Source of the DNA: an uncultured Bacillota bacterium | GTDB lineage: Bacteria; Bacillota_I; Bacilli_A; RF39; UBA660 | Direction: 5' to 3' | NCBI GenBank assembly: GCA_947303895.1 | Contig: CAMYZQ010000001.1 | Location: forward strand, 5,779 to 69,778 | DNA length: 64,000 nucleotides | Shown here: positions 27,714 to 48,684 of the stretch, one piece after another | How positions within the stretch are numbered: the stretch's first letter is position 1 | How the letters are laid out: each line of letters begins with the position of its first letter | Notes under the pieces: generated by a model | Told to the model about the DNA's origin: nothing | What the model saw: only the letters and a program-made list of their open reading frames with translations | The model's database searches: none | Made by a program: the position numbers and the translations under genes

Positions 27714-30700
27714 ATGGCACAAGACATTGTTAATGAAAATCAAAAAATTTCTTATACCAATTTAGATTTCTCTTCAATTTATACTGAAGTAATAGATTTA
27801 ATTAAGCAACTTACCTATAGATGGGATCCTTCCATATCAGATGAATCTGACCCAGGTGTTGTTTTAGTAAAACTATCTTCATTAATTGCAGATAAATGCA
27901 ACTATAATATTGATAAGAATATTTTAGAAACATTTCCACTTTCTGTTACTCAGAATGGTAATGCCAGACAACTGTATGATCAACTCGGTTACTATATGAA
28001 TTGGTATGAAAGTGCTTCTGTTCCAGTGTTATTGAGCTGGGTAGGAGAAACTAATGATAGTTCTGTATCTTATACTATACCTAAATTTACAGCAATAACA
28101 GATTCAGAATCAAGCCACATTTATTCTTTAATTGGTGCTGAAGGTACTGATGATGTAATAGTATCTGATACAATATTACCTGCTGATGGTAATGCAGTAA
28201 CAGTTATAGCAATGGAGGGTACTCCAGTTCAATATCAATTTGAAAATGAGACTGTTATTACTACTCAAATGGTAGATCCAATATCAAGAAGATTATATTT
28301 TCCACATTCTTATGTATCTCAAAATGGAGTATTTATAAAGAACACTAATCAGGAAAATTACGCTTCTTGGAAAAGAGTTAATAACTTATATGAAAATTCA
28401 TATAATGAATTAAGATATGTTTTTGGCTATGATAGTAATACTGATACTTGTTTTTTAGAATTTCCAGATAATTATTCAGAATTATTTGGAAGCGGCATTG
28501 AGATTACATATTTAGTAGTACCTCAAGAAACAACTAATATTCCAGCACAAGCATTAAATAGTTTCTTAGCACCTATTGCTGTAGGTGGAGATGCTGGCAT
28601 AGTTTTAGATTCAAGTAATGTTAAAATTGTTAATTATGTAGCTGCTTCAGGTCATAAAGATATTGAAAGTATAAATGATGCTTATATTAATTATAAGAGA
28701 ACAGTTGGTACTTTCAAGACATTAATTACATTAAGAGATTATTTAAATTATATTAGAAGCCAGGAGCTTGATATTTGTTCAAACGCCTTTGTATGTGATA
28801 GAACTAATGATATTCAGTCTACATACAAAATTATGAGCAGTAATCATGATTTGGACACAATAATTGTTAAAGTAGAACAATTATTAGATAAAACAACTTT
28901 AGAATCTACATTTGACTACAAGTTTGTAAAAACATCAGATATTAATATAAATCCTTCAAAGACATATTATACAATATCTAATAATAATACATTATCTGAA
29001 GTTACTACACCTGTGCTCAGTGATTTAAGTACTTACTATGAATTATCATCAGTAGAACCAAAATATGTAGATGCATTAAGTCCATTTTCTCTTAAGTTCT
29101 ATTTACTTAGAAAAGCTATAGCTTTAAATAGCAAAACAGCATATAATCAAACATTCTCTATGATGAAAACTTATCCAGAGTTTGATTCATTATTAGAGGG
29201 TACATCACATCTTGAGCATACATATGAAGATATTCTGCCTTTAGGTGAGAATACATATATTAAATCAAATGATGATATGTGGTATGATAACAAATCATAT
29301 TGGTTATATGATTCTGAAGAAGATATTTATGAGTTAATTTCTGATACTTCTGTATTTGATGGAACACCAGCTAGCCTATCAAATGTATATAATATTGATG
29401 TAGAGGCACTTCTCCCTCATACAGTAATGTTTAAAGGTGTATATCCAGTTACATTAAATATATCTACATATAATGTATTAGATGAAGATACACAAGCAGA
29501 TATTTCGAGTAATATTATTTCAAGCTTATATTCTAATGTGAATAGTTCACAAGTGGATTTTGGTTTACCAATTTCTATAGACTATTTAGTTGAAATTGCA
29601 AAAAATAGTGATGATAGAATTAAAAATGTTACTATAGATCCGATAGAATATTCTTTATTTGCTACATATTATGACAAGAATGAAGATATTTATGTAGATG
29701 TAGAACTTAACAGTGATACGGATTCATTAACTCCAGTATCGCAAAGAAGTATTTCAGATATTGTATCTGCATTAATGAAAAAAGACATCATATGTAAATC
29801 AATATTAGCTGGTACTACACAGTTATTAGTTCCAGATGATACCTTCATATATCATTTGAGCCAAAAATATTTAGATTACATTGATGGTATAAGTAATATT
29901 ACAGGTGAAGCTATAATAGATGTACAGAATGATTCTGTTACTTCATATTCATTAGATAATGAAGATTCATTTATAAGAAAAGCATATACATTAAAGGATA
30001 ATGAAGTAGTATCCATTTATAGACCAAAATTTAATGCTACAAAAACATTTCCAAATAATGTACATTTTGAATATGTATTATATAATGATATTACTGCTGA
30101 TTCTTCTTATAAATTAAATAGTAATGAATATTTCATATTATATAATCCAATAAAAGATGATGATGCTACAACTATTATTGGTTATACAGTTTATGCTTGT
30201 AGTGCTGGTGCAATAATTCACTCTACATTTGATATACCAAAACAAACATCTTTATCAGCATTATCTGGGTTTGCTAGAGCTAGAGTAGTAACTTATTTCT
30301 CAGTTAATCCTACAAAGAATTATTATGAATTATCCACTTATAATGAGAATTATAAGACGGAAATAAGAAATAGTTCTGCAATCATAAATAATGCAATATC
30401 TGGTACAAATGAGATTCAAATACAAGAAGTTTCAACTATAACACTTGATAGAGAAGATAAATATAAATTCTTCTGGATATTAAATGAACCAACATATTCA
30501 AACAATTCAAATTTAAAGTCATATACTTTATTTGATAATTTTGATAGTGTAAATGATAATAATTCTTCAGAAGTTATAAATACTTATACTTTAAGAAACG
30601 GTGAAGCATTGTTCTACACTAATGAGTCTGCTACAGATTTTGCTATGCTCGGCCCTGGTACAACACTTATCAGAAACTGTGGTGTTGAGTCTTCAATATA

Positions 30701-33700
30701 TACTGAGATTGAAAATTCAATCTATTATGTAGCTGTTGATGATATAGCACATATACTTATAGATGGTGAGTTCGAGTTCTTAACCGATGATAATAGTGAG
30801 ATAAGGCCTTTTGCTAATGGTTTATATGAAGTATCAAGTGCAGAATTACAAACATTAGAAAGTACTGATAATCCATTAGCGAAAAATTTATATGAACAAG
30901 TTGTTCATGATGATACAACCATATCATATATACCTACATTTAATACAGAACCAGAAGAGGGTGTAGATTATTACAAATTAACATTTATAAGAACTTTAGA
31001 CACATCATTAGTTTCTGGTAAATATTACTATGTACTAGTAATGAGAAAAGAGGCTGGATGGTATATAAAGAGTAGTGTAACTGATGATAATGGTATAGAT
31101 AGAGAAATCTATGTACCTGATGAGATTGAAACAGGTTGTTTTAAAGAAGTAAATCTATATGCAACTGCAGAATTACATAATCCTAAAGAGTTAGGTTTAT
31201 ATGAAATACTCACATCTAATAATAATAAATTTATAGATCAGTATGCTTTAAATAATAATGTTGCAGCTACAAAGCAAAATAGATATACTACTACAGAAGA
31301 TACATCAGTTATAAATAGAAATATTTTATCTGATACAAAATATTCTGGCATAAACTTAACTGATATAAGTACATATACTACAATAGATATGTCAGAAATG
31401 ATAACTTCAAGTCCTGAAACACTTGGGTTATTAACACCGGTGTATAAAAAATATTATACTACTGCTTCTCATACGGAGGAAGTGCCAGTAAGTTACTTAT
31501 CAAATCCTAATGCAGAAGGTTTATGGGCATATGAATATAATCCAATAACAGGAACTTATGAATATATGCTAACATCTGATACTACACCTAAAGTTGAATC
31601 TGTAAATAAATCACTTAGTGTAGAATTATTAAAAGAAAAAGATACACTGTTTACAAACAACTTAAATAATTCTGGCTATTATTATAAACCAAGCTCAATA
31701 AATTCTACATATTATTATAATAACAATTTAGGTTCAAAATTACCTACAACAGTATATAGTAATATATCAGGCTATAGCCCTTCATTCTTAGATGCTGGTA
31801 CAGTGTTAACAGAATATGAGGGTGCGTATAATAGATCACCATTATCATATTTATTCTATTGGTTTAGTAATACATCAGCACAGACAGAATCATCATTAGA
31901 TGAGTCTACTAAGAGATTAACACAAATTGCTGCAAATTGGGCAACAGCTATTTCCTACCAAAAACCATATATGGAAGTGCCTTTATGGGATTCTAATTCT
32001 GTATATAAATATGATGATGTTGTAGCTTACTCTCCGAGCAGTGAACAGGCAGCGCTATCATACAAATGCATTGTATCTCAGGCGTCAAGTACATGGAATT
32101 ATGATGAATGGGTTAGAGTTGATACCTCTTGGGCAACATTTAAGTTTAAGACACATACTGACCCACACACTATACCAAGTGATGATAATAATTCTTATCT
32201 CATAAGTAGTATAAGAGATGCTTCAGCTATACCAGAATGGAGTAGTGAAGAGACTTATGAATATGGTGATGTTGTACTATATACAATAGACACAGACACA
32301 AACGCTTATATGTGTATAGTTGATCAGGCATCAAGCACTTGGGATTCTGAAGAATGGAAAGAAATAGATACTTCTACTGATAATAAATATATCAAGGTAG
32401 CTGGTAACACTATAATTGATAAATCTATTATAGTAGGTAATATATATCCTATATTAGATGAGGGGCCAGATTCTACTGGAACTGGTGCATGGTTCTTTAT
32501 ACCAGCTGCTTATTTAACAAGTTATGCAGAAGCAGATTTAGTAGACCCAATAAATTACTATGTATTAGATGTTGATACTTCAGTAACTCCAAATGTACCT
32601 ATATTTACATATTTGGATAATGATCTAAAACTTTCAAGATTATTCCCTAATTCAAAAAATGATGTAAGTAATTATGGAACAGTACATATATTCTTTATAC
32701 CTAAGTTATATGAGTTTAATGATTTTGTAAGGTACACTTATAAAAATTATTATGAACCAAAAGTTTTGTATAACAGAAACTGCGGAGAGATAAAAGCTTG
32801 GACTTGTACAGCTTTAGATAATGATTATATTTATAAAGACCCAATTAAGAATATTGGAGATTTATGGACATCACTGCAGACAAATACTTCATTAACATTA
32901 ATAGAAAATGAAATTCAATCATTTTCTTCTGGAGATATGCTTATATTTGAAGCAGACGAAACTTCTGAAGCATATGTATCATGGCCAACATTTAGTAATA
33001 CTGAAACAATATTAGATTTAGATTCTTACAGAGTTTCATATCAAAGAGTTGGAGAAGATATTAAAGATATTGAAACTGTGGCTGTTGATGATTATAAATG
33101 GAGAGGCTATTCTTCATTAATGCTAAATACATCAAGTACAAGTGGCCAAAAATTAGAGTATAACCATACATTAAAACTATATGATAGTGATGTAGCTGAA
33201 GATCCTATAGCAACATTGGAGGGTAGTTCACACAATAACATAACTTTCCAATTAAAATACCCTGTTGAAAATAAAGTAGGTACATTTATAGATGTATCAA
33301 CAGTAGATATGCTAGGAGAGGATATTCTTAATAAACTATATGCATTTACTCCATTTGCAAATGGTTCATATTATGCATATGATACCAGTAATTACAAAAC
33401 ATATTTATATTTTAATCAAGATGAGAACGAGGGCAGTAATCCAACTACATATTCACCATCAACAATAGATTTACCTGTAGGTTTACCATCAGGAAATTAT
33501 TTACTTGGTATGAATATGAAAGATGACATAAACCTTACTGTAAATCTTATAAATATGCTTGAAGGTATTTCCTCAGGTGGTTCTGGTATTGGTTGTAATC
33601 TTGATGCGTCTGCAGTAGTTTCTAATATTGCATATGGTAATATGAAATACACATTTGATCCAAATTATAGTAATTATTTACATTCATATGTAGATACAAG

Positions 33701-34388
33701 CAGAACAGTGTTTACTGGAGATAAATATGATTATATTTACTTAAATGTAAGTAGTGAATATAATAAAATTAAATTACCTTCATTAGTATCATATTTATTT
33801 GGTAAGTCTCCATATGCACTTGGTTGGTATATCAAACTTGATAATGATTATATTAAATGTGATTCAAGTTATACTTCAGTAGGTTCAAGCTTACTTGAAG
33901 CAATACCATTTAATGAAGATACTAGATCATTATCACCAGTCGAAGAAGGTTGGTATGAATATATACTTGATAATGGTTATTGGTTCTATGAGTTATCTAC
34001 AGATGCTGTTATGGCAGACGCTAATACAAAAACATATTATAAAGAACCAGATTTATATGTGAGTATTTCAGATGTAAATTCATATTTAAGATTTACAATA
34101 GATGATAATAAAGCACCTAGAACCTATACAATTTTAGATGTATTCAAGTATAATCAAAATCCAGCATTTGGTAGTGAATTTGATACTGTGCTAGAAAAGA
34201 TTAAAGCTTTAGATACTGATGAGCAATTTAATTATATGTTTAAGCCATCAGCTAATGATTTAATTGAAAATCCATTAGATCCTAAATCATTCTGGAATTC
34301 AAATCATGTATATAACAGTTTCATTATACCACAATTAAATTTCGATGAACTTAATTGTAGATATATCACAACTAAAATGAATAGGTAA
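27714..34388 (+). CDS. giant (2224 aa) baseplate J (gp6/gpJ)-like protein fused to a long distal region carrying CBM5/12-like carbohydrate-binding repeats
   Basis: The N-terminus YTNLDFSSIYTEVIDLIKQLTYRWDPSISDESDPGVVLVKLSSLIADKCNYNIDKNILETFPLSVTQNGNARQLYDQLGY matches the Baseplate_J family; internal repeats YKYDDVVAYSPSS..YKCIVSQASSTWNYDEWVRV and YEYGDVVLYTIDTDTNAYMCIVDQASSTWDSEEWKEI fit W....Y..GD.V.Y.G..Y.C......W....W. Confidence 0.7.
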   Translation: MAQDIVNENQKISYTNLDFSSIYTEVIDLIKQLTYRWDPSISDESDPGVVLVKLSSLIADKCNYNIDKNILETFPLSVTQNGNARQLYDQLGYYMNWYESASVPVLLSWVGETNDSSVSYTIPKFTAITDSESSHIYSLIGAEGTDDVIVSDTILPADGNAVTVIAMEGTPVQYQFENETVITTQMVDPISRRLYFPHSYVSQNGVFIKNTNQENYASWKRVNNLYENSYNELRYVFGYDSNTDTCFLEFPDNYSELFGSGIEITYLVVPQETTNIPAQALNSFLAPIAVGGDAGIVLDSSNVKIVNYVAASGHKDIESINDAYINYKRTVGTFKTLITLRDYLNYIRSQELDICSNAFVCDRTNDIQSTYKIMSSNHDLDTIIVKVEQLLDKTTLESTFDYKFVKTSDININPSKTYYTISNNNTLSEVTTPVLSDLSTYYELSSVEPKYVDALSPFSLKFYLLRKAIALNSKTAYNQTFSMMKTYPEFDSLLEGTSHLEHTYEDILPLGENTYIKSNDDMWYDNKSYWLYDSEEDIYELISDTSVFDGTPASLSNVYNIDVEALLPHTVMFKGVYPVTLNISTYNVLDEDTQADISSNIISSLYSNVNSSQVDFGLPISIDYLVEIAKNSDDRIKNVTIDPIEYSLFATYYDKNEDIYVDVELNSDTDSLTPVSQRSISDIVSALMKKDIICKSILAGTTQLLVPDDTFIYHLSQKYLDYIDGISNITGEAIIDVQNDSVTSYSLDNEDSFIRKAYTLKDNEVVSIYRPKFNATKTFPNNVHFEYVLYNDITADSSYKLNSNEYFILYNPIKDDDATTIIGYTVYACSAGAIIHSTFDIPKQTSLSALSGFARARVVTYFSVNPTKNYYELSTYNENYKTEIRNSSAIINNAISGTNEIQIQEVSTITLDREDKYKFFWILNEPTYSNNSNLKSYTLFDNFDSVNDNNSSEVINTYTLRNGEALFYTNESATDFAMLGPGTTLIRNCGVESSIYTEIENSIYYVAVDDIAHILIDGEFEFLTDDNSEIRPFANGLYEVSSAELQTLESTDNPLAKNLYEQVVHDDTTISYIPTFNTEPEEGVDYYKLTFIRTLDTSLVSGKYYYVLVMRKEAGWYIKSSVTDDNGIDREIYVPDEIETGCFKEVNLYATAELHNPKELGLYEILTSNNNKFIDQYALNNNVAATKQNRYTTTEDTSVINRNILSDTKYSGINLTDISTYTTIDMSEMITSSPETLGLLTPVYKKYYTTASHTEEVPVSYLSNPNAEGLWAYEYNPITGTYEYMLTSDTTPKVESVNKSLSVELLKEKDTLFTNNLNNSGYYYKPSSINSTYYYNNNLGSKLPTTVYSNISGYSPSFLDAGTVLTEYEGAYNRSPLSYLFYWFSNTSAQTESSLDESTKRLTQIAANWATAISYQKPYMEVPLWDSNSVYKYDDVVAYSPSSEQAALSYKCIVSQASSTWNYDEWVRVDTSWATFKFKTHTDPHTIPSDDNNSYLISSIRDASAIPEWSSEETYEYGDVVLYTIDTDTNAYMCIVDQASSTWDSEEWKEIDTSTDNKYIKVAGNTIIDKSIIVGNIYPILDEGPDSTGTGAWFFIPAAYLTSYAEADLVDPINYYVLDVDTSVTPNVPIFTYLDNDLKLSRLFPNSKNDVSNYGTVHIFFIPKLYEFNDFVRYTYKNYYEPKVLYNRNCGEIKAWTCTALDNDYIYKDPIKNIGDLWTSLQTNTSLTLIENEIQSFSSGDMLIFEADETSEAYVSWPTFSNTETILDLDSYRVSYQRVGEDIKDIETVAVDDYKWRGYSSLMLNTSSTSGQKLEYNHTLKLYDSDVAEDPIATLEGSSHNNITFQLKYPVENKVGTFIDVSTVDMLGEDILNKLYAFTPFANGSYYAYDTSNYKTYLYFNQDENEGSNPTTYSPSTIDLPVGLPSGNYLLGMNMKDDINLTVNLINMLEGISSGGSGIGCNLDASAVVSNIAYGNMKYTFDPNYSNYLHSYVDTSRTVFTGDKYDYIYLNVSSEYNKIKLPSLVSYLFGKSPYALGWYIKLDNDYIKCDSSYTSVGSSLLEAIPFNEDTRSLSPVEEGWYEYILDNGYWFYELSTDAVMADANTKTYYKEPDLYVSISDVNSYLRFTIDDNKAPRTYTILDVFKYNQNPAFGSEFDTVLEKIKALDTDEQFNYMFKPSANDLIENPLDPKSFWNSNHVYNSFIIPQLNFDELNCRYITTKMNR

Positions 34389-38681: not shown

Positions 38682-39734
38682 ATGGAACCGAATTTTGATT
38701 TTGATAAATGTGCTGAATTAACTAAAAATGGAAAATGGTTTTCACAATTATTGTATGATAGGGCTTATGATATAATAAAAGATGATTGTTTCCCTATAGT
38801 TATACCATCATATAATAGGCCAAAAAATAAGCTTTTAAGAATGTTTAAAAATAATAATATTGATAATTATAATTTTCAAGCTTATTATTTGGTTAGGGAA
38901 TCTCAGAAAGAAGAGTATGAAGCAGAAGTAGTTAATATAAAAAATGTACATATTATTACTGCACCTGATGATTTAATAAATGGTGCAGGTAAAGCTCGAA
39001 TAGAAATTATTAAAAGATTTAACGGAAATATATTTTTATTTGATGATGATATTCAGCAAGTTTGTTTTACTACACCTACATATACTCCAAAAGGTGGTTG
39101 CAGATTTGGTACTAAATATAATCCTACAGATTTATTTAAAATATTATCTATGTGGCAGCTAACTTATATGGTTGTAAAAGAAAAATATCCAGAAATAGTT
39201 GGTAGTAATCTACCTTGCACAGCTCATACTTGGCCAGTAACACCAAATCATCTACCACAATATTCAGTAGAGTTTAATAGGGGCCCATTTGCAGTATTAA
39301 CTATATGCGATGTAGATAAACTTAAAGAAAATAATTTAACATATAGAGATAATTCTTTTGGTCATGAGGATTTGGATTTACAATTCAGGTGCTTAATGGC
39401 AGGGTTAAAATTTATTAGAATTAATTTTATAGGTTATGTGGCAGATCCCCCTAATCCAGAGTTTAATGGGGATAAGTCTGCTTCTGCAATGGAACGATAT
39501 GAAAAGCAATATAATCAAATGCTACCATATTTCAAAGATGTGCCTTGGATAAAAACAAGAGAGCAAAAGGGATTAAAAATGCTAGCTGTTGATTACAGAA
39601 AATATTCTGAATGTATGGGTGCTGACCCTAAAATAAATCCTGTAAAATTATTGCAAGAAAAATATCCTATTTTCAATGATATAGAAACAGTTGAATTGTA
39701 TGGAAAAACTAAACATAAATTAGATCTTTTTTAA
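38682..39734 (+). CDS. GT-A-fold (family-2-like) glycosyltransferase-like protein, paralog of 50935..51795
   Basis: The N-terminal FPIVIPSYNRPKN (h-h-h-h-P-(S/T)-YNR motif) and FLFDDD (DxD-like); the same arrangement as in ORF 50935 (FAIFILSHGRPDE ... AEFEDDYL). Confidence 0.4.
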   Translation: MEPNFDFDKCAELTKNGKWFSQLLYDRAYDIIKDDCFPIVIPSYNRPKNKLLRMFKNNNIDNYNFQAYYLVRESQKEEYEAEVVNIKNVHIITAPDDLINGAGKARIEIIKRFNGNIFLFDDDIQQVCFTTPTYTPKGGCRFGTKYNPTDLFKILSMWQLTYMVVKEKYPEIVGSNLPCTAHTWPVTPNHLPQYSVEFNRGPFAVLTICDVDKLKENNLTYRDNSFGHEDLDLQFRCLMAGLKFIRINFIGYVADPPNPEFNGDKSASAMERYEKQYNQMLPYFKDVPWIKTREQKGLKMLAVDYRKYSECMGADPKINPVKLLQEKYPIFNDIETVELYGKTKHKLDLF

Positions 39735-40004: not shown

Positions 40005-40583
40005 ATGTTTATCGGAGCTAATGTAAATCACAAAAATACAGCTAAATTCGGAACTGGTGTAATTACAGATCTTGAAATTAACCCAGAAGATCAGCTTAAA
40101 TCCAAAGTTTCAGTTCAGTTTAATAATGGTGCTTTTTCAAAATTTTCTATAAAAGCATTTGAAGAGAATGGTTTTTTCACTACAGACGATGAGGACATAA
40201 TACCATTTGTAGAAAAGTTGAAAGTTGAGTCCGAAGAAAAGCGCAAAGCTGAACTGAAAAGAAAAGCAGAATCAATCGTTTATGTACCAAGCTATGATAT
40301 TAATGAATACGATAAAGAGGTTACTAAAGAAGATTGGATAAAAGCTGCTGAAGTGGCTGGTAATCATAGATTTCCTAATGAGTCAAGAGCTGTGGTTATG
40401 GATTCTGATCTTATATTTATTAATGCATCTGCAGCTATGCGATATATGGGATCAAGAATTAAAGACTGTGATAAAATATATAAAGCTTGCGAAAATAATA
40501 ATAAATTCCAGGGACATAGTTGGAGCTATGCTTCAAGAGATGCAATAGATCATATAATAAGTTTGTTTGAAGAAGGACATTAA
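40005..40583 (+). CDS. hypothetical protein (192 aa)
   Basis: ATG preceded by SD AAAGGAGGA; no motif. Confidence 0.5.
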   Translation: MFIGANVNHKNTAKFGTGVITDLEINPEDQLKSKVSVQFNNGAFSKFSIKAFEENGFFTTDDEDIIPFVEKLKVESEEKRKAELKRKAESIVYVPSYDINEYDKEVTKEDWIKAAEVAGNHRFPNESRAVVMDSDLIFINASAAMRYMGSRIKDCDKIYKACENNNKFQGHSWSYASRDAIDHIISLFEEGH

Positions 40584-40825
40584 GTGAATTAAAAGAACCT
40601 TTTTATATTAATTATAAAATAAATAAAACAAAGCTAGATAAATATAGTTGTAATGAAGTTGCAGAGCTATATTTATCTAGTTCTTCTTTAGAAGATAAAA
40701 ATGCATATACAAGTTTTTTACTTTGTAATGCTTGGAATCTTTTACAAAGAATATATTATGTTGGTAATAATGCAAAGTTATCTTGTGAAGAATGCTATGA
40801 CATATTTATACAAACATTTCAATAT

Positions 40826-41380
40826 GTGATAGAAAATCATGTGTGGGATAATCCTAATAGTACCTTATATAAAGATGAAAATGCTTTTATGAAGGCTATG
40901 GCTGTTACTATACAGTGTAGAAAGAAAAACTATATAGAATCAAAGTTTAAACAAAAGAGAATTATAAATAATAATATAATTTCTTTAGATAGTTTATATG
41001 ATGATTATGTTGATGGTTACTTTACTCAAACAGAAGAACCAGAATATAGTATATCAGACTATATACTAGAAGAAAAGATACATTATTATTTTATTAATAA
41101 ATGTTATTTAACAGCATTTATACTTGATGGTATACTATATGATAATGTGTATGATGAGCATAATAATCTTGATTTAAGGAAATTAAGAAAGTATTTAAGA
41201 AATATTAATGATGATTTCTGTAAATATTTTTCATACAAATACAATTTAATTTTTGATGAGGTTAAAAATAGTTTGGTTACATTTGATAGTGATAATCAAG
41301 CATTATTTGATAAAAAGATTAATACTTCATTTATAACTTTAAAAAATGATGATACAATAAAACAAATATTAGATATATAG
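40826..41380 (+). CDS. hypothetical protein; the coding potential continues upstream to 40571 with no canonical start (possible sigma-factor region-2-like protein of >=270 aa)
   Basis: The track start is a GTG with no SD; the same frame is stop-free for 85 codons upstream (40571-40825) and translates into protein-like sequence (…CEECYDIFIQTFQYVIENHVWDNPNSTLYKDENAFMKAMAVTIQCRKK…). Confidence 0.4.
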   Translation: MIENHVWDNPNSTLYKDENAFMKAMAVTIQCRKKNYIESKFKQKRIINNNIISLDSLYDDYVDGYFTQTEEPEYSISDYILEEKIHYYFINKCYLTAFILDGILYDNVYDEHNNLDLRKLRKYLRNINDDFCKYFSYKYNLIFDEVKNSLVTFDSDNQALFDKKINTSFITLKNDDTIKQILDI

Positions 41381-41390
41381 GGGAAGTTTA

Positions 41391-42083
41391 ATGCTTGTAG
41401 AACTTTTAAGTCAGTCTAATTATCAATCGTTTAATATTAAATTAGCTCAACTGCTCGGATTGGAATCAGCAATATATCTTAGTGCTTTAATAGATATAAA
41501 TGAAAAAGCATTTAGAAAAAATAAGATTATAGATCATGGCTTTTTTATGGTTGATAGAGATTATATAAAAGCAAGAACTACATTAACTAAATCAAAACAA
41601 GAAAAAATAGAATGTGAATTAAACAAACTTGGTATACTAGAATTAAGTAATGATCATTTAAAAATTAATCTTGAAATTTTAACATCATTGGTGTTAGAAG
41701 AAAATGAAGAGATAAGAAGAGATTTGTCAAATTTCAGAAAAGCTGCTAATTCAAAGAATAAGGGTGATTATATTCTTGAAAATGTAAAAAAGAATATTGA
41801 TACTAAATTGCCAATGGAATTACAACAAGCTTATGCTAATTGGCTTGATTCTGTATATTCAAAGATTAATTTTGTTAATAAACAAACATTGTTTAATGCA
41901 CAGAAAGAGGTTGATGCTGCTTCAAATCATAATTTAGATGTAGCATTAGATATCATAAATATAGCTGCAGCTAGTGGCTGGAAAGATATGAAGTGGGCAG
42001 TAAAAGTTTACAAAGAAAGACACCCAAATTATAATGTAATAGATATGAAAGCTGTAGATGTAGATTGGAGTACAAGTTACTAA
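41391..42083 (+). CDS. DnaD-like replication initiation / replisome organiser protein
   Basis: The N-terminal IKLAQLLGLESAIYLSALIDINEK...GFFMVDRDYIKARTTLTKSKQEKIECELNKLGILEL resembles DnaD or phage replisome-organiser winged-helix N-domains; it is followed by DnaC- and DnaB-like genes. Confidence 0.45.
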   Translation: MLVELLSQSNYQSFNIKLAQLLGLESAIYLSALIDINEKAFRKNKIIDHGFFMVDRDYIKARTTLTKSKQEKIECELNKLGILELSNDHLKINLEILTSLVLEENEEIRRDLSNFRKAANSKNKGDYILENVKKNIDTKLPMELQQAYANWLDSVYSKINFVNKQTLFNAQKEVDAASNHNLDVALDIINIAAASGWKDMKWAVKVYKERHPNYNVIDMKAVDVDWSTSY

Positions 42084-42787
42084 TGGTAGATTGTTTTACA
42101 AAAGATACTTGTAAATTATATAATTCAGAAGAAGATACTTGTCCATATATGAATAGCGAGATAAAGATATGTATGAGACAATATAAAATTAATTATTTAT
42201 TGGATCAAGCATTATTATCTGAAGCTCAAAAAACAAGAAAAGCTCTTCTTCTTGATGTAAATAAAGTTGATTTACAAGCGTTTACAGAGTTAAATACAAT
42301 AAAAACTAATATTGTATCATTTGCTAAAAATGGCAATAATTTGTATATATACTCTAAAATTCCAGGTAATGGTAAAACAAGTTGGGCAATAAAGTTAATT
42401 CAATCTTATATTAATAAAATATGGGCAGAATCTCAATTAACTTGCAGAGTACTGTTTATAAATGTGCCTAAATTTTTATTAGCGTTGAAAGCAAGTATAT
42501 CAACTCATAGTGATTATATAGATCATATAAATACATTTGTAAATAGTGCTGATATTGTTGTTTGGGACGATATTGGTACTAAAGTAGCAACTGAGTTTGA
42601 ACACGAACATCTATTAAGTTTAATAGACTCAAGACTATTAGATAATAAATCCAATATATTTACAAGCAATATAGTACCTAATGAACTTAGTACTTTTGTT
42701 GGGGATAGATTAGCTAGTAGAATTATAAATACAGCAACAAATATAGAATTTTTAGGAATGGATAAGAGAGGTATAAGGCTGAAATGA
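42065..42787 (+). CDS. DnaC/IstB-like AAA+ helicase loader
   Basis: Walker A GNGKTSWA, Walker B IVVWDDIG, with helicase-loader-like spacing; located upstream of a DnaB-like gene. Confidence 0.65.
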   Translation: MEYKLLMVDCFTKDTCKLYNSEEDTCPYMNSEIKICMRQYKINYLLDQALLSEAQKTRKALLLDVNKVDLQAFTELNTIKTNIVSFAKNGNNLYIYSKIPGNGKTSWAIKLIQSYINKIWAESQLTCRVLFINVPKFLLALKASISTHSDYIDHINTFVNSADIVVWDDIGTKVATEFEHEHLLSLIDSRLLDNKSNIFTSNIVPNELSTFVGDRLASRIINTATNIEFLGMDKRGIRLK

Positions 42788-44049
42788 TACAACTTCAAGT
42801 TTTAAATCATTTGTTAGATACTAAAGACAGCTCTATGCTTCTTATGAATAATATTACAGATGAATTCTTTTCTGATTATAAAGAAGAATATGAGTTTATA
42901 TGTAATCATTTAAATGAGTATGGTAGTATACCTGATAAATTAACTTTTCTTGATAAGTTTCCTAATTTTGATATAGTTGAAGTTAATGAGTCTTCAGATT
43001 ATTTAATAGATAAATTATATGATGATCGTAATACTAGAAAATTAGCTGAAATATTTAATGGTATTCGTGAGCTTTTAACTAAGGGTGATATAGATGCAGC
43101 TATGCAATTATATACTTCTTCAAGTGAAGCAGTAGTAAAAGCTAAGCATATTGAAGCTGTAGATATATTAAGAAATACTGAACGATATGATGCTTATATT
43201 GAAAGGTGTGAGAATTTTGATAAGTATTATGTTAAAACAGGTTTCAAGGAATTAGATGAAATTATAGGTGGTTGGGATAGACAAGAAGAATTAGCAACTA
43301 TTGTAGCAAGATCAAATCAGGGAAAATCTTGGGTATTATTTAAATGTGCAGTTGCTGCAGTAGAGCAGGGACTGAATGTTGGTATTTATTCTGGAGAAAT
43401 GAGTGAAAGAAAAGTTGGTTATAGAATTGATACACTTATAGCTAATATTTCTAATACAGCACTAACTAAAGGAGATAGAACTGTTCAGAATGAATATAAA
43501 AGATATTTAGATAATTTACCTAATAAATATAAGGGGTTTTTAAAAGTTCTTACTCCAAATATGATAGATGGTCCAGCTGGAGTGTCAGCGCTAAGAGCAT
43601 TTATTGAAAAAGAAAATTTAGATATATTGTTTATAGACCAACATTCTTTGCTTGAAGATGATAGACACGCGAGATCACCTGTAGAAAAAGCTTCAAATAT
43701 TTCTAAAGATTTAAAAAATCTTCAAGTGCTTAAGAAAATTCCAATTATATCGGTTTCTCAGCAAAATAGGTCTTCAACAGAAAATGGTGTTGGACTTGAG
43801 CATATTGCACAAGCAGATAGAATTGGACAAGATAGCACTATTGTAATATTTTTTGAACAGAAAAATGGTTTGATGACTTTACATCTTATAAAGTCAAGAG
43901 ATTCTGCTAATATGAAAGATATAACATATCTTATTGATTTAAACAAAGGTATGTTTACATATGTTCCTGAAGAAGCAAACGCATTAGATGGAGAAGGTAC
44001 ACAAGAATTAAGGGCTGAGTTTAATGAAGAAGGAGAAGATATATTCTAA
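42784..44049 (+). CDS. DnaB-family replicative helicase
   Basis: GFKELDEIIGGW (H1), Walker A ARSNQGKSW, FIDQHSLL (Walker B-like), RecA-like C-terminal domain; 421 aa. Confidence 0.8.
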   Translation: MIQLQVLNHLLDTKDSSMLLMNNITDEFFSDYKEEYEFICNHLNEYGSIPDKLTFLDKFPNFDIVEVNESSDYLIDKLYDDRNTRKLAEIFNGIRELLTKGDIDAAMQLYTSSSEAVVKAKHIEAVDILRNTERYDAYIERCENFDKYYVKTGFKELDEIIGGWDRQEELATIVARSNQGKSWVLFKCAVAAVEQGLNVGIYSGEMSERKVGYRIDTLIANISNTALTKGDRTVQNEYKRYLDNLPNKYKGFLKVLTPNMIDGPAGVSALRAFIEKENLDILFIDQHSLLEDDRHARSPVEKASNISKDLKNLQVLKKIPIISVSQQNRSSTENGVGLEHIAQADRIGQDSTIVIFFEQKNGLMTLHLIKSRDSANMKDITYLIDLNKGMFTYVPEEANALDGEGTQELRAEFNEEGEDIF

Positions 44050-45248: not shown

Positions 45249-46052
45249 ATGGCACAGATTAGTTATGATGAAGTTACTTCAAGAAATGATGCAGAATTTG
45301 ATGTTGGTTTTTTCTCACTTAAATCTGACGGAGATGAAGCTATTGTAAGAATTCTTTGTGATCAGGTATCTGACCTCGAAATTCTTACTGTACACCCTGT
45401 TACTGTAGGTAATAGTTCATTCCCTAACAGAAATGTTAACTGTATCAGAACACCGCATGATCCACTTGATAAGTGTCCATTCTGTAATTCTGGTGAAAAG
45501 GTAAAGCAGAGAGTATTTATTAAGATGCTACAGTATGATCCAAATACAAGGGAACCTATTGCTGTAGTGTGGGATAGACCTGCAGGAGTATTTGTACCAA
45601 AGCTTAAGAGTTATATTGATAACTATGGTCCACTTACAAATATTATGTGCAAGATTATCAGACATGGTTCAGGTCTTGATACAACATATGATATTATTCC
45701 AAACCTTAACCCACAGGTTTATACTACAGAAGCTTATAGAGTAGATACATCAGCATTTAATGATTTTTCAGTACTTGGTAGAATGGTACTTGATAAAACG
45801 GCTGATGAGATGATTACTTATATGAGAACAGGTAGTTTTCCAGAAAGAGTAAAGGAATCTTCTGCAGTACCTAATACTAATTGGGCACCACCTACTTCTG
45901 CTGGCAACCCAAATCAGTATCAGACATTTACTACAGCAGAAACTAACCCTAATATGGCACCAACGCCAATACCTAATGGGTATGAACAGCCATATGGTGG
46001 TCCAGCCCCAATGGATCAGGGAAGCTTGCAAAGGCCAACTAGATATTACTAA
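45249..46052 (+). CDS. single-stranded DNA-binding protein, T4 gp32-like
   Basis: AIVRILCDQ...H...CIRTPHDPLDKCPFCNSG resembles the gp32 zinc-binding subdomain; the C-terminus is a low-complexity P/Q/N/G-rich tail; SD AAAGGAGAA upstream; a terminator follows. Confidence 0.5.
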   Translation: MAQISYDEVTSRNDAEFDVGFFSLKSDGDEAIVRILCDQVSDLEILTVHPVTVGNSSFPNRNVNCIRTPHDPLDKCPFCNSGEKVKQRVFIKMLQYDPNTREPIAVVWDRPAGVFVPKLKSYIDNYGPLTNIMCKIIRHGSGLDTTYDIIPNLNPQVYTTEAYRVDTSAFNDFSVLGRMVLDKTADEMITYMRTGSFPERVKESSAVPNTNWAPPTSAGNPNQYQTFTTAETNPNMAPTPIPNGYEQPYGGPAPMDQGSLQRPTRYY

Positions 46053-46106: not shown

Positions 46107-46295
46107 ATGAGTATGAAATTATATAATGAAGCAAAAGAATTGTTCGGTGATATGGTTGATTTAACTGAAGAAGAATCCAAAGCATATGCTGAATATATCA
46201 ATAGTATTTCAGAGCCAGTTAATGGTAGAACATTTTGGGAGATATTAGATGAATTTGTGGGGAGAGGAGTTTGTTCTAGAGACAACTCAAAATAA
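46107..46295 (+). CDS. hypothetical small protein (62 aa) overlapping the polymerase start
   Basis: ORF; overlaps 46249..48684 by 47 nt in a different frame. Confidence 0.3.
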   Translation: MSMKLYNEAKELFGDMVDLTEEESKAYAEYINSISEPVNGRTFWEILDEFVGRGVCSRDNSK

Positions 46296-48684
46296 AGTAA
46301 ATAAACTTCTTGATAAAGTAAATAATCCTAAAAAATCACATCATAAAAAGAAAGAAAGTTTTTCTGTTGATGAAAGATTAGTTACAATAAAAGAATCAGT
46401 AAATAAAATTTTAGGTAAATATGCAGATTCAACTATTGTAATAAAGTCTAAAGAAGAATATGATGATTATATTAATAAGTGTATTGATATAGGTATTGTA
46501 GCTCTTGATACTGAAACTAATAATAGCTTAGATCCTTTAACTTGTATGTTAATGGGATTATGTTTATATGCACCTGGATTGCCAGCAGCGTATGTACCTG
46601 TTCATCATATAAATAGAGAAACAGGTGAGAGATTAAGTTGGCAGTTAGATGAGAAACAAATAAAAGAAGGCATAGAAAAACTTAAAAATATAAAAATATT
46701 AACTCATAATGGTAAATTTGATTATGAAGTAATTAAATGTACTTGTGATTGTGATTTCCCAATATATTGGGATTCCCAGATAGCTGCAAAGGTGCTTGAT
46801 GAAAATGAATTATCTGCAAGGTTAAAAGATCAATATGTAATGAAAATTGATCCTAATGAAGAAAAATATTCTATTGAGCATTTATTTGAAGGGTTAGATT
46901 ATGCAATAGTTGCACCCGAACTATTCGCTTTATATGCAGCTACAGATTCATTTAAAACATATAAATTATATGAATATCAATATAAACAGTTAAATAAACC
47001 TGAAAATAGTAGATTACTTGATTTATTATTTAATGTAGAGTTTCCTGTAATACCTGTAGTAGCTGAAATGGAATTAACAGGTGTTTGTATTGATTTAGAA
47101 TATTCTGACAGATTGAGAAAAAAATATGATGATAAATTAGCTAATTTACAATCAAGAGTAGATAAAGAATTATCTAAATATGATGATGTAATTGCAAAAT
47201 GGAGATTAACAGAAGAAGCTAATCATCACCCAATAAAATCTACAGGAAATGGGTTAGGTAAATCTAAATCTGAACAATTAGAAAATCCTGTAAATTTGGC
47301 TTCACCAACACAACTTGCAATATTACTGTATGATGTGTTAAAAGTTCCAGTAGTTGATAAGAAAAAACCAAGAGGTACAGGTGAAGATATATTACTAAAA
47401 ATAGATTTACCTCTGTGTAAATTAATTCTGGAATATAGAGGGTTAATGAAACTTGTTAATACCTATATTGAAAAATTACCAGAATGTATATCTGAGAGAG
47501 ATGGTAGATTACACGCAAGCTTCAATCAATATGGAGCAGCTACAGGTAGGTTTAGTTCAAGTGACCCAAATCTTCAAAACATACCTTCGCACGAAAATTC
47601 TATACGAATGCTATTTACAGCAAGTCCTGGTTATGTTATGTGTGGTGGAGACTTTTCACAGCAAGAGCCTCGTTTACTAGCACATTATTCAGATGATGAA
47701 AATATGATAAATGCATATAAAGATGGAAAAGATTTATATGCTACAATCGCATCAAGAGTTTATCATAATAAATATGAAGATAATCTAGAATTTAGACCTG
47801 ATGGTAGTATTAATCCAGATGGAAAGAAAAGAAGATCTGCTTGCAAGGTACTTTTGTTAGGAATTATGTACGGTATGTCAGTACCCGCTATTGCAGAGTC
47901 TTTGAACTGTTCTACAAAAGAGGCAAGTGATATAAGATCTAGTTTCTTTAATCAATTTCCAAAAGTTAATAAATGGATAAATGAAACACAGGTTTTCGCA
48001 AAAGAAAATGGCTATGTAGAAGATGCTTGGGGTAGAAGAAGAAGATTACCTGATATACAAAGGCCAAGATATGAAGTTAAATCTAAAAATAAATTTTCAA
48101 CATTTAATCCACTAATAGGTAGTTCTGGTGTAAATTATACTATTAACAATGTGTTAATTGAAAAATATTTATCAGAATTAGATAAATGTAAAAATGCTAA
48201 CGATTTTAATATTATAAAATCAAAAGCAGAAAAAGATAATTTAACAATATATAACAATACAGGTTTTGTATCACAAGCTGAAAGGCAGTGCGTAAATGCA
48301 AGAATTCAGGGTGGTGCTGCTTCTATGTCTAAGCGTGCTATGATAGATGTTTATAATAATAAAGAACTTAAGGATTTAGGTTTTAGATTATTAATAGCTG
48401 TACACGATGAATTGATAGGTGAATGTCCAGAAGAAAATAAAGAAAGATGTAAAGAATTATTGTCTAATATTATGATTAATTCTGCAAAACCTGAAGTAAA
48501 TGTACCTATGAAGTGTGATGCTGATTATTTTAAATCATGGTATGCAGATGTATATAGCTCAGAATTAGAAAAAGAATATAATAATTATTTATCAAAATAT
48601 GATAAAGAAAAAGCTTATGAGCTATTGAAAGATAATCATTCAGAAGTAACTGATGAGTTTATATCAAATATTATTTACAAATAA
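46249..48684 (+). CDS. family A DNA polymerase (Pol I-like) with a 3'-5' exonuclease domain
   Basis: Exo I IVALDTETN; motif A GDFSQQEPRLLAHYS; motif B RRSACKVLLLGIMYGMS; motif C VHDELIGE. Confidence 0.9.
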   Translation: MNLWGEEFVLETTQNKVNKLLDKVNNPKKSHHKKKESFSVDERLVTIKESVNKILGKYADSTIVIKSKEEYDDYINKCIDIGIVALDTETNNSLDPLTCMLMGLCLYAPGLPAAYVPVHHINRETGERLSWQLDEKQIKEGIEKLKNIKILTHNGKFDYEVIKCTCDCDFPIYWDSQIAAKVLDENELSARLKDQYVMKIDPNEEKYSIEHLFEGLDYAIVAPELFALYAATDSFKTYKLYEYQYKQLNKPENSRLLDLLFNVEFPVIPVVAEMELTGVCIDLEYSDRLRKKYDDKLANLQSRVDKELSKYDDVIAKWRLTEEANHHPIKSTGNGLGKSKSEQLENPVNLASPTQLAILLYDVLKVPVVDKKKPRGTGEDILLKIDLPLCKLILEYRGLMKLVNTYIEKLPECISERDGRLHASFNQYGAATGRFSSSDPNLQNIPSHENSIRMLFTASPGYVMCGGDFSQQEPRLLAHYSDDENMINAYKDGKDLYATIASRVYHNKYEDNLEFRPDGSINPDGKKRRSACKVLLLGIMYGMSVPAIAESLNCSTKEASDIRSSFFNQFPKVNKWINETQVFAKENGYVEDAWGRRRRLPDIQRPRYEVKSKNKFSTFNPLIGSSGVNYTINNVLIEKYLSELDKCKNANDFNIIKSKAEKDNLTIYNNTGFVSQAERQCVNARIQGGAASMSKRAMIDVYNNKELKDLGFRLLIAVHDELIGECPEENKERCKELLSNIMINSAKPEVNVPMKCDADYFKSWYADVYSSELEKEYNNYLSKYDKEKAYELLKDNHSEVTDEFISNIIYK

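Follow-up and report, generated by a model that had tools for sequence, protein, structure and literature searches.

A conserved, uncharacterised phage gene carrying AGG in place of its ATG start codon in an uncultured gut phage

A conserved gene of 268 codons, in which the ATG start codon is replaced by AGG, was identified in a 64,000-nucleotide stretch of DNA (the window) belonging to an uncultured gut phage of a low-GC Firmicute, a user of Shine-Dalgarno motifs. This identification is, in our judgement, almost certain. An 85-codon stretch with no canonical start (40571-40825), which had attracted attention as a protein-like open frame, is, on the evidence of its homologues, the native N-terminal coding sequence of a conserved 268-residue phage protein. 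On balance, we consider the allele to be probably real, an evolutionarily recent start-loss that leaves the gene essentially null, and not a case of programmed recoding. Related contigs are referred to below by L-numbers.

The open stretch and its homologues

The frame is closed upstream by a TGA at 40568-40570. It is followed by 85 sense codons at 40571-40825, with no stop and no ATG, GTG or TTG, and runs in frame into the ORF that opens with GTG at 40826 and ends with TAG at 41378-41380. The first-pass annotation had described these codons as stop-free, start-less, protein-like and in the frame of the downstream gene; this description was confirmed, and the two translations agree. It had also placed the frame at -1 relative to ORF 40005..40583 and overlapping its end, which is correct: the last 13 nt of that ORF are shared. 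The probability of 85 open codons at the local composition (A.40, T.34, G.17, C.10) is 1.7e-4, close to the earlier estimate of about 5e-4. The open stretch is real, non-random and correctly located. In real genes of this genome, ATG, GTG and TTG make up 2.5% of in-frame codons, and the probability of finding none in 84 codons is 0.12. The absence of an internal canonical start is therefore unremarkable, and the only anomaly left is a single missing ATG at 40574-40576.

The features of the locus, all on the forward strand, are as follows.

40005..40583, +, upstream gene; 189 aa in relatives, here longer by three codons (E-G-H) and ending at TAA 40581-40583
40572..40574, +, stop codon that the upstream gene has lost; relatives have TAA, overlapping the ATG by 1 nt (TAATG), and the window has GAA
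40574..40576, +, start codon that has been lost; 24 other contigs have ATG, L021 has ATA and the window has AGG
40574..41380, +, complete gene (268 codons) of an uncharacterised conserved phage protein family, based on homologues and the open frame; first codon AGG here and ATG in relatives, stop TAG at 41378-41380
40574..40966, +, N-terminal all-helical domain, approximately residues 1-131; AlphaFold2 domain model with pLDDT 92 and pTM 0.84
40604..40609, +, second patch of substitutions, with TATATT in place of the GAGAAT or GAAAAT of sequenced relatives
40826..41380, +, mechanically called 184-aa ORF from GTG; not a credible start, as it has no Shine-Dalgarno motif and removes five helices of the N-terminal domain
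40955..41050, +, acidic disordered linker between the domains; pLDDT below 50, model residues 129-160
41057..41377, +, C-terminal helical domain, from the structure model
41391..44049, +, conserved downstream block of a 230-aa protein, a DnaC/IstB-like loader (42083-42787) and a DnaB-like helicase (42784-44049), in the same order in close and distant relatives

The 269-residue conceptual protein was used as the query in the homologue search. Twenty-two homologues of 263-272 aa were found, which cover 99% of the query at 45-97% identity, and comparison of the orthologous loci showed that the stretch is coding in the relatives. All of these homologues have the N-terminus M-T-L-x-E-L-K-E-P. The window reads R-R-T-L-S-E-L-K-E-P, and this alignment puts AGG 40574-40576 at the start position. 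Fourteen further alleles from the 90% cluster all start MTLSELKEPF[E/D]NNYK. The wider family, defined by profile search, comprises 489 clusters at 50% identity, with most members at 255-285 aa, and in full-length members the profile match begins at positions 1-3. In the AlphaFold2 model of the whole protein (pLDDT 81), a disordered acidic linker connects two helical domains. The start-less stretch supplies approximately two thirds of the N-terminal domain, with 13 residues that are invariant in the family (L7, K8, S48, L50, W55, N66, L70, E73, C75, Y76, I78, Y85 and V86). The homologue coverage, the shared N-terminus and the domain model together identify the start-less stretch as the true 5' part of the 40574-41380 gene.

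No close or distant homologues of the 268-residue protein were found in cultured phages, and no PHROG family was found for it. No paralogue was found in the window, and the neighbouring proteins of 267 aa (45249-46052) and 230 aa showed no sign of paralogy with it.

Distant family members on L033 (1-300), L034 (1-330) and L035 (1-165) come from stop-codon-recoded phages, and their proteins had been truncated by gene callers. Two in-frame TAG codons lie at conserved positions in L033 and L034, and in L035 an in-frame TGA coincides precisely with a column of conserved Trp (TGA read as Trp). Start loss was considered for these N-terminally truncated calls and was rejected in favour of stop-codon recoding.

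Substitutions at the gene junction

At the junction with the upstream gene, 18 species-level contigs (95-97% identity to the window) read ...TTTGAATAATGACATTAAG..., in which the last A of the upstream TAA is the first base of the ATG (TAATG). The window reads ...TTTGAAGAAGGACATTAAG..., and its GAAGG differs from TAATG by two T-to-G substitutions, T40572G and T40575G. The second patch lies approximately 30 nt downstream of the junction, with changes at 40604, 40606 and 40608 that result in E11Y and N12I and create a new in-frame ATT at 40607. The E11 column is at least 90% conserved in the family.

The other mappable genes between 34.4 and 49.4 kb (18 of 18) have kept their start and stop codons and contain no internal stops, including those at three further junctions where stop and start likewise share 1 nt (36999, 42083 and 44049). 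The assembly is thus otherwise clean. A frameshift error or a pseudogene had been proposed for the locus at first pass. The option of a pseudogene or a sequence error stands, and that of a frameshift or indel falls, as the start codon has been altered by a base substitution.

The T-to-G changes also create a Shine-Dalgarno-like AAGGA (window 40573-40592) 6 nt upstream of a GTG at 40584. The frame that begins with this GTG is a mini-ORF of just two codons (GTG AAT TAA) and follows immediately on the displaced upstream stop.

Several origins for the substitution patches were considered and rejected. Template-switch (quasi-palindrome) mutagenesis was suggested by nearby inverted partners that fit all five derived bases. 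As a control, the observed changes were ranked among all alternative base changes, and their ranks of 9/9 and 6/27 indicate that the inverted-partner matches are due to chance. A new RNA hairpin between the patches was not supported, with -4.4 kcal/mol in the window and -5.9 kcal/mol in the ancestral sequence, neither of which differs from shuffled sequences. A scan of GTDB genomes (species representatives) gave no spacer-like match to the core of the junction, and a CRISPR-escape patch is unsupported. Copying from elsewhere in the window was rejected because no donor sequence was found there. TATATT was not called as a new promoter, and promoter-like sites occurred at the level of shuffled sequences.

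Real allele or sequencing artefact

The principal alternative is that the patch is a sequencing or assembly artefact, a short miscalled stretch in a genome that truly reads TAATG and GAGAAT as in every relative. We regard this as possible, if rather unlikely. Within 37 nt, the window departs from its nearest relative at five positions; four of these differences are strictly private to the window, and four of the five are G/T transversions. Such transversions are otherwise rare in this lineage: over 7 kb they make up 13 of the 216 differences from L001, and they account for 8 of approximately 88 strictly private substitutions in 5.8 kb, of which 78% are transitions. The cluster is unusual for independent mutations and compatible with a patch of poor quality in an otherwise transition-dominated background. 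The positions affected are critical or highly conserved throughout (a stop, a start and the near-invariant E11). The AGG allele is moreover a singleton, known from one contig of 72,165 bp, with no copy found in IMG/VR, JGI metagenomes or GTDB genomes.

Against an artefact, the rest of the contig is clean, with those 18 other genes intact and one indel in 7 kb, and the private changes in the neighbouring genes are mostly silent (71 synonymous, 13 nonsynonymous). Dense private clusters also occur elsewhere in the window, for example at 42437-42469, and clustering alone is therefore not diagnostic of an artefact. At that site, six window-private substitutions lie in 33 nt inside the DnaC/IstB-like gene, in which eight of nine private changes are synonymous. 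This second cluster is probably a recombination tract from an unsampled lineage.

The private changes in the 268-codon gene are of a different kind from those of its neighbours: six are nonsynonymous and one is synonymous (Fisher p=2.5e-4 against the 13/71 in the neighbours). The excess also extends outside the patch, as it persists when M1R, E11Y and N12I are left out (p=0.018). The three remaining nonsynonymous changes (N190D, V226I and R257K) are conservative, and R257K at least also occurs as a polymorphism elsewhere in the population, so the signal of relaxed constraint is modest. Such an excess would be the pattern expected after loss of constraint, and it favours a real, recent start-loss over an artefact.

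A second natural variant of the same start codon also argues against an artefact. In L021 (ENA ERZ28653753, XIEF21-1 scaffold_7942; variant at L021:2184-2186), the ATG is changed to ATA by a transition, the upstream TAA is intact and all 268 codons are open. L021 is otherwise an ordinary lineage, in which the ATA is the only nonsynonymous private change in approximately 6 kb, and here too the gene caller gave a product of 179 aa. As a separate observation, the first ~470 nt of this contig (L021:1-470) show no homology to the SNF2 3' end that all other relatives carry, a mosaic boundary which results in an apparent fusion with the glycosyltransferase gene.

Translation of the gene

In this phage species, no Shine-Dalgarno motif precedes the ATG of the 268-codon gene; such a motif is present in 30 of the 52 genes of the window. 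Stop/start overlaps of -1 and -4 nt are a classic substrate for termination-reinitiation coupling (PMC6728339). Since the ATG lacks a Shine-Dalgarno motif, initiation at TAATG is most likely coupled to upstream termination, and in the normal allele the gene would be translated by ribosomes that have terminated on its upstream neighbour. In distant relatives, the family gene heads its block behind an intergenic region that contains GGAGG or AAGGAG.

In the GAAGG allele, the upstream ORF is extended by three codons and the ATG is changed to AGG, and little or no full-length protein would be expected, which would make the allele a knock-out or a strong knock-down and the gene an incipient pseudogene. 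A scan of 40571-40900 found no Shine-Dalgarno motif before any of the in-frame ATT 40607, ATA 40619, GTG 40826, GTG 40841, ATG 40889 and ATG 40898; for GTG 40826 this had already been noted in the first-pass annotation. Initiation from AUA, AUC, AUU and CUG in E. coli amounts to approximately 0.02-3% of that from AUG (Hecht et al., bioRxiv 10.1101/063800). The remaining codons, AGG among them, reach approximately 0.01-1% even behind a strong ribosome-binding site (bioRxiv 10.1101/063800). The allele is most likely null or a strong knock-down, since the alternative starts have no Shine-Dalgarno motif, AGG is a weak initiator and the product from GTG 40826 is truncated.

It is improbable, in our view, that a full- or near-full-length protein is still made, by reinitiation at AGG after the TAA at 40581-40583 or by initiation at ATT 40607, with expression tuned down rather than abolished. 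Some observations fit this idea. All 268 codons remain open in the window as well as in L021, the ATA of L021 is a recognised near-cognate initiator, and the second patch of the window makes an in-frame ATT. Two independent non-ATG alleles among approximately 20 sequenced species-level contigs (approximately 45 on record) are, moreover, more than would be expected if the start were indispensable. However, AGG lies outside the near-cognate class, with at most ~1% of AUG activity even with a strong ribosome-binding site, and neither it nor ATT 40607 nor ATA 40619 is preceded by a Shine-Dalgarno motif. Use of the ATT would remove the conserved M-T-L-x-E-L-K-E-P motif, and no relative conserves a non-ATG start. 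The earlier suggestion of initiation at ATT 40607 or at an ATA was consequently not upheld: these codons are unconserved, the ATT occurs in this contig alone and no Shine-Dalgarno motif lies upstream.

Much less probable still is that the true product is the 184-aa protein from GTG 40826 or the 179-aa protein from GTG 40841, with the upstream open frame a leftover. The 184-aa length comes from mechanical ORF calling and the 179-aa length from the public gene call for the source contig. Neither GTG has a Shine-Dalgarno motif, however, and both products would lack five helices of a confidently folded N-terminal domain together with its 13 invariant residues. Full-length family members align from the very first profile positions (1-3), and the shorter calls that were examined in distant relatives reflect stop-codon recoding and not truly short genes. 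A programmed -1 ribosomal frameshift joining the 192-aa upstream protein to the 268-aa frame, an option raised at first pass by the 13-nt overlap in -1 relation and agreeing with the downstream displacement of the upstream stop, can be dismissed with near certainty, as 40571-40583 (GAAGAAGGACATTAA) lacks a slippery heptamer of the form X XXY YYZ, the RNA downstream is predicted to form no stable structure (z = 0.67, like shuffled sequences), the relatives all keep two separate genes, each with its own ATG and overlapping at TAATG, and more distant relatives have different upstream genes or a Shine-Dalgarno-bearing intergenic region.

Relationship to sigma factors

The first-pass annotation had seen a likeness to sigma-70 region 2.1-2.2 in the start-less stretch and had raised the possibility of a phage sigma factor. 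This was not supported. The Pfam and NCBIfam sigma models (Sigma70_r2, TIGR02937 and Sigma70_r4) matched none of 110 diverse family members at E<=0.1. When a profile of the 110 sequences was aligned by hhalign with sigma-E (the sequence of which was verified to be identical to 1OR7) and with a small 3-sequence ECF profile, the probability was 0.1-0.2%. Profile searches of the PDB returned no sigma or other relevant match for the family. With Foldseek, the N-terminal domain, which holds the proposed region 2 motif, had no sigma factor among its top 50 PDB matches. With the whole model, ECF sigmas were recovered from the PDB (E 1.7-5.4) and phage sigma factors from BFVD (E 1.4-2.9), all of them sub-significant. 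A sigma identity for the 268-residue protein is thus not supported, and the resemblance in fold is a recurring but non-significant hint.

Gene neighbourhood

The order of the family gene, the ~230-aa protein, the IstB/DnaC-like loader and the DnaB-like helicase is kept in close and distant relatives. The earlier placement of the locus at the head of a replication-initiation operon is broadly right as a description of its context, and this conserved gene order suggests that the family protein has a role in replication initiation or early regulation. No origin-like iterons were found in the 268-codon gene or its neighbour.

All genes of the window lie on one strand and include a tail sheath, tail proteins, an SNF2-like helicase, a TAGT-type glycosyltransferase and a primase. 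The family A DNA polymerase is intact, and its nearest cultured relatives are those of Clostridium phages (43%), with 55% to a human faecal phage fragment. It is a single 811-aa gene in the window (46249-48684) and in L008. In L007 (15676-19394) and L010 (8902-11551), it is split into 525 and 326 aa by an inserted 325-aa ORF without a Pfam match, which looks like a mobile intron or homing-endonuclease insertion. L007 also has an ORF with a faint match to GIY-YIG (SegE-like) upstream of the SNF2-like helicase (L007:5571-6500), absent from the window and L008, and its SNF2-like helicase is 544 aa in length, compared with 559-560 aa.

The glycosyltransferase of the window (38682-39734) matches phrog_842 (beta-glucosyl-HMC alpha-glucosyltransferase-like), a DNA hypermodification gene, and in L003 (18084-20497) a thymidylate-synthase-like gene adjoins a T4-type glucosyltransferase. 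The phage DNA is probably glycosylated. A 2224-aa ORF without a PHROG match (window 27714-34388) directly follows the tail genes, and its counterparts in relatives have 2109-2225 aa and no precomputed Pfam match. Two extra small genes of 140 and 111 aa lie between the primase and the 267-aa gene in L008 (14665-15491), L009 (7883-8709) and L006; they are absent from the window (~45197), L001, L007, L010 and L013.

Significance of the start-codon variants

For annotation, the calls of 179 and 184 aa are start-finding artefacts, and the locus should be read as a gene of 268 codons whose start codon has mutated. Point mutation of a start codon is an ordinary event; the second independent variant and the size and obscurity of the family add slight interest. 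A widespread, uncharacterised phage protein heads a conserved DnaC/DnaB replication block, and natural start-codon variants of its gene occur. These variants are a small hint that the gene may be dispensable or dosage-sensitive.

A more far-reaching scenario, to which as a whole we give a low probability, starts from start-less alleles (AGG and ATA) that are real and recurrent. Loss or lowering of the protein might then be advantageous in some hosts, for example as an escape from a host defence that senses the protein, or reinitiation at the junction might tolerate non-AUG codons. With both readings, the family of 489 clusters could be a highly divergent regulator, sigma-like or initiator-like, that stands first in the replication block in uncultured gut Clostridia phages.

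Comparison with known systems

The junction resembles the systems of translational coupling by stop/start overlap (PMC6728339; PMC10666635), as the same TAATG without a Shine-Dalgarno motif is present in 18 of 18 species-level relatives. The window differs in that both halves of the overlap are destroyed (GAAGG), and the coupling itself is read from the sequence. The intact conserved ORF without a 5' ATG, GTG or TTG is reminiscent of conserved non-AUG initiation, as in infC and pcnB (AUU) of E. coli (bioRxiv 10.1101/063800). In contrast to those genes, the AGG of the window is unconserved (the relatives have ATG), is not near-cognate and has no ribosome-binding site, and there is no evidence of autoregulation.

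Programmed -1 fusions, such as those of the phage tail chaperone G/GT and dnaX, likewise consist of two overlapping frames in -1 relation, whereas the window has no slippery site, its overlap is unconserved and the relatives have separate genes. ECF-type (group IV) and phage sigma factors share with the family two helical domains, a flexible linker, a small size and a position in the early or replication module of phages, and they recur among the sub-significant Foldseek matches of the family model. The family differs from ECF sigmas in giving no sigma-2 or sigma-4 signal with Pfam, NCBIfam or hhalign and, at ~270 aa, in being longer than a typical ECF.

Start-codon-loss alleles in microbial and phage populations are alike in the single-base change of the ATG, the intact ORF, the private allele and the nonsynonymous excess. 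Compared with the usual alleles of this kind, the window adds a second, radical patch 30 nt further downstream and, linked to the lost start, the loss of the stop codon of the adjoining gene, and a second independent allele (ATA) of the same start codon exists.
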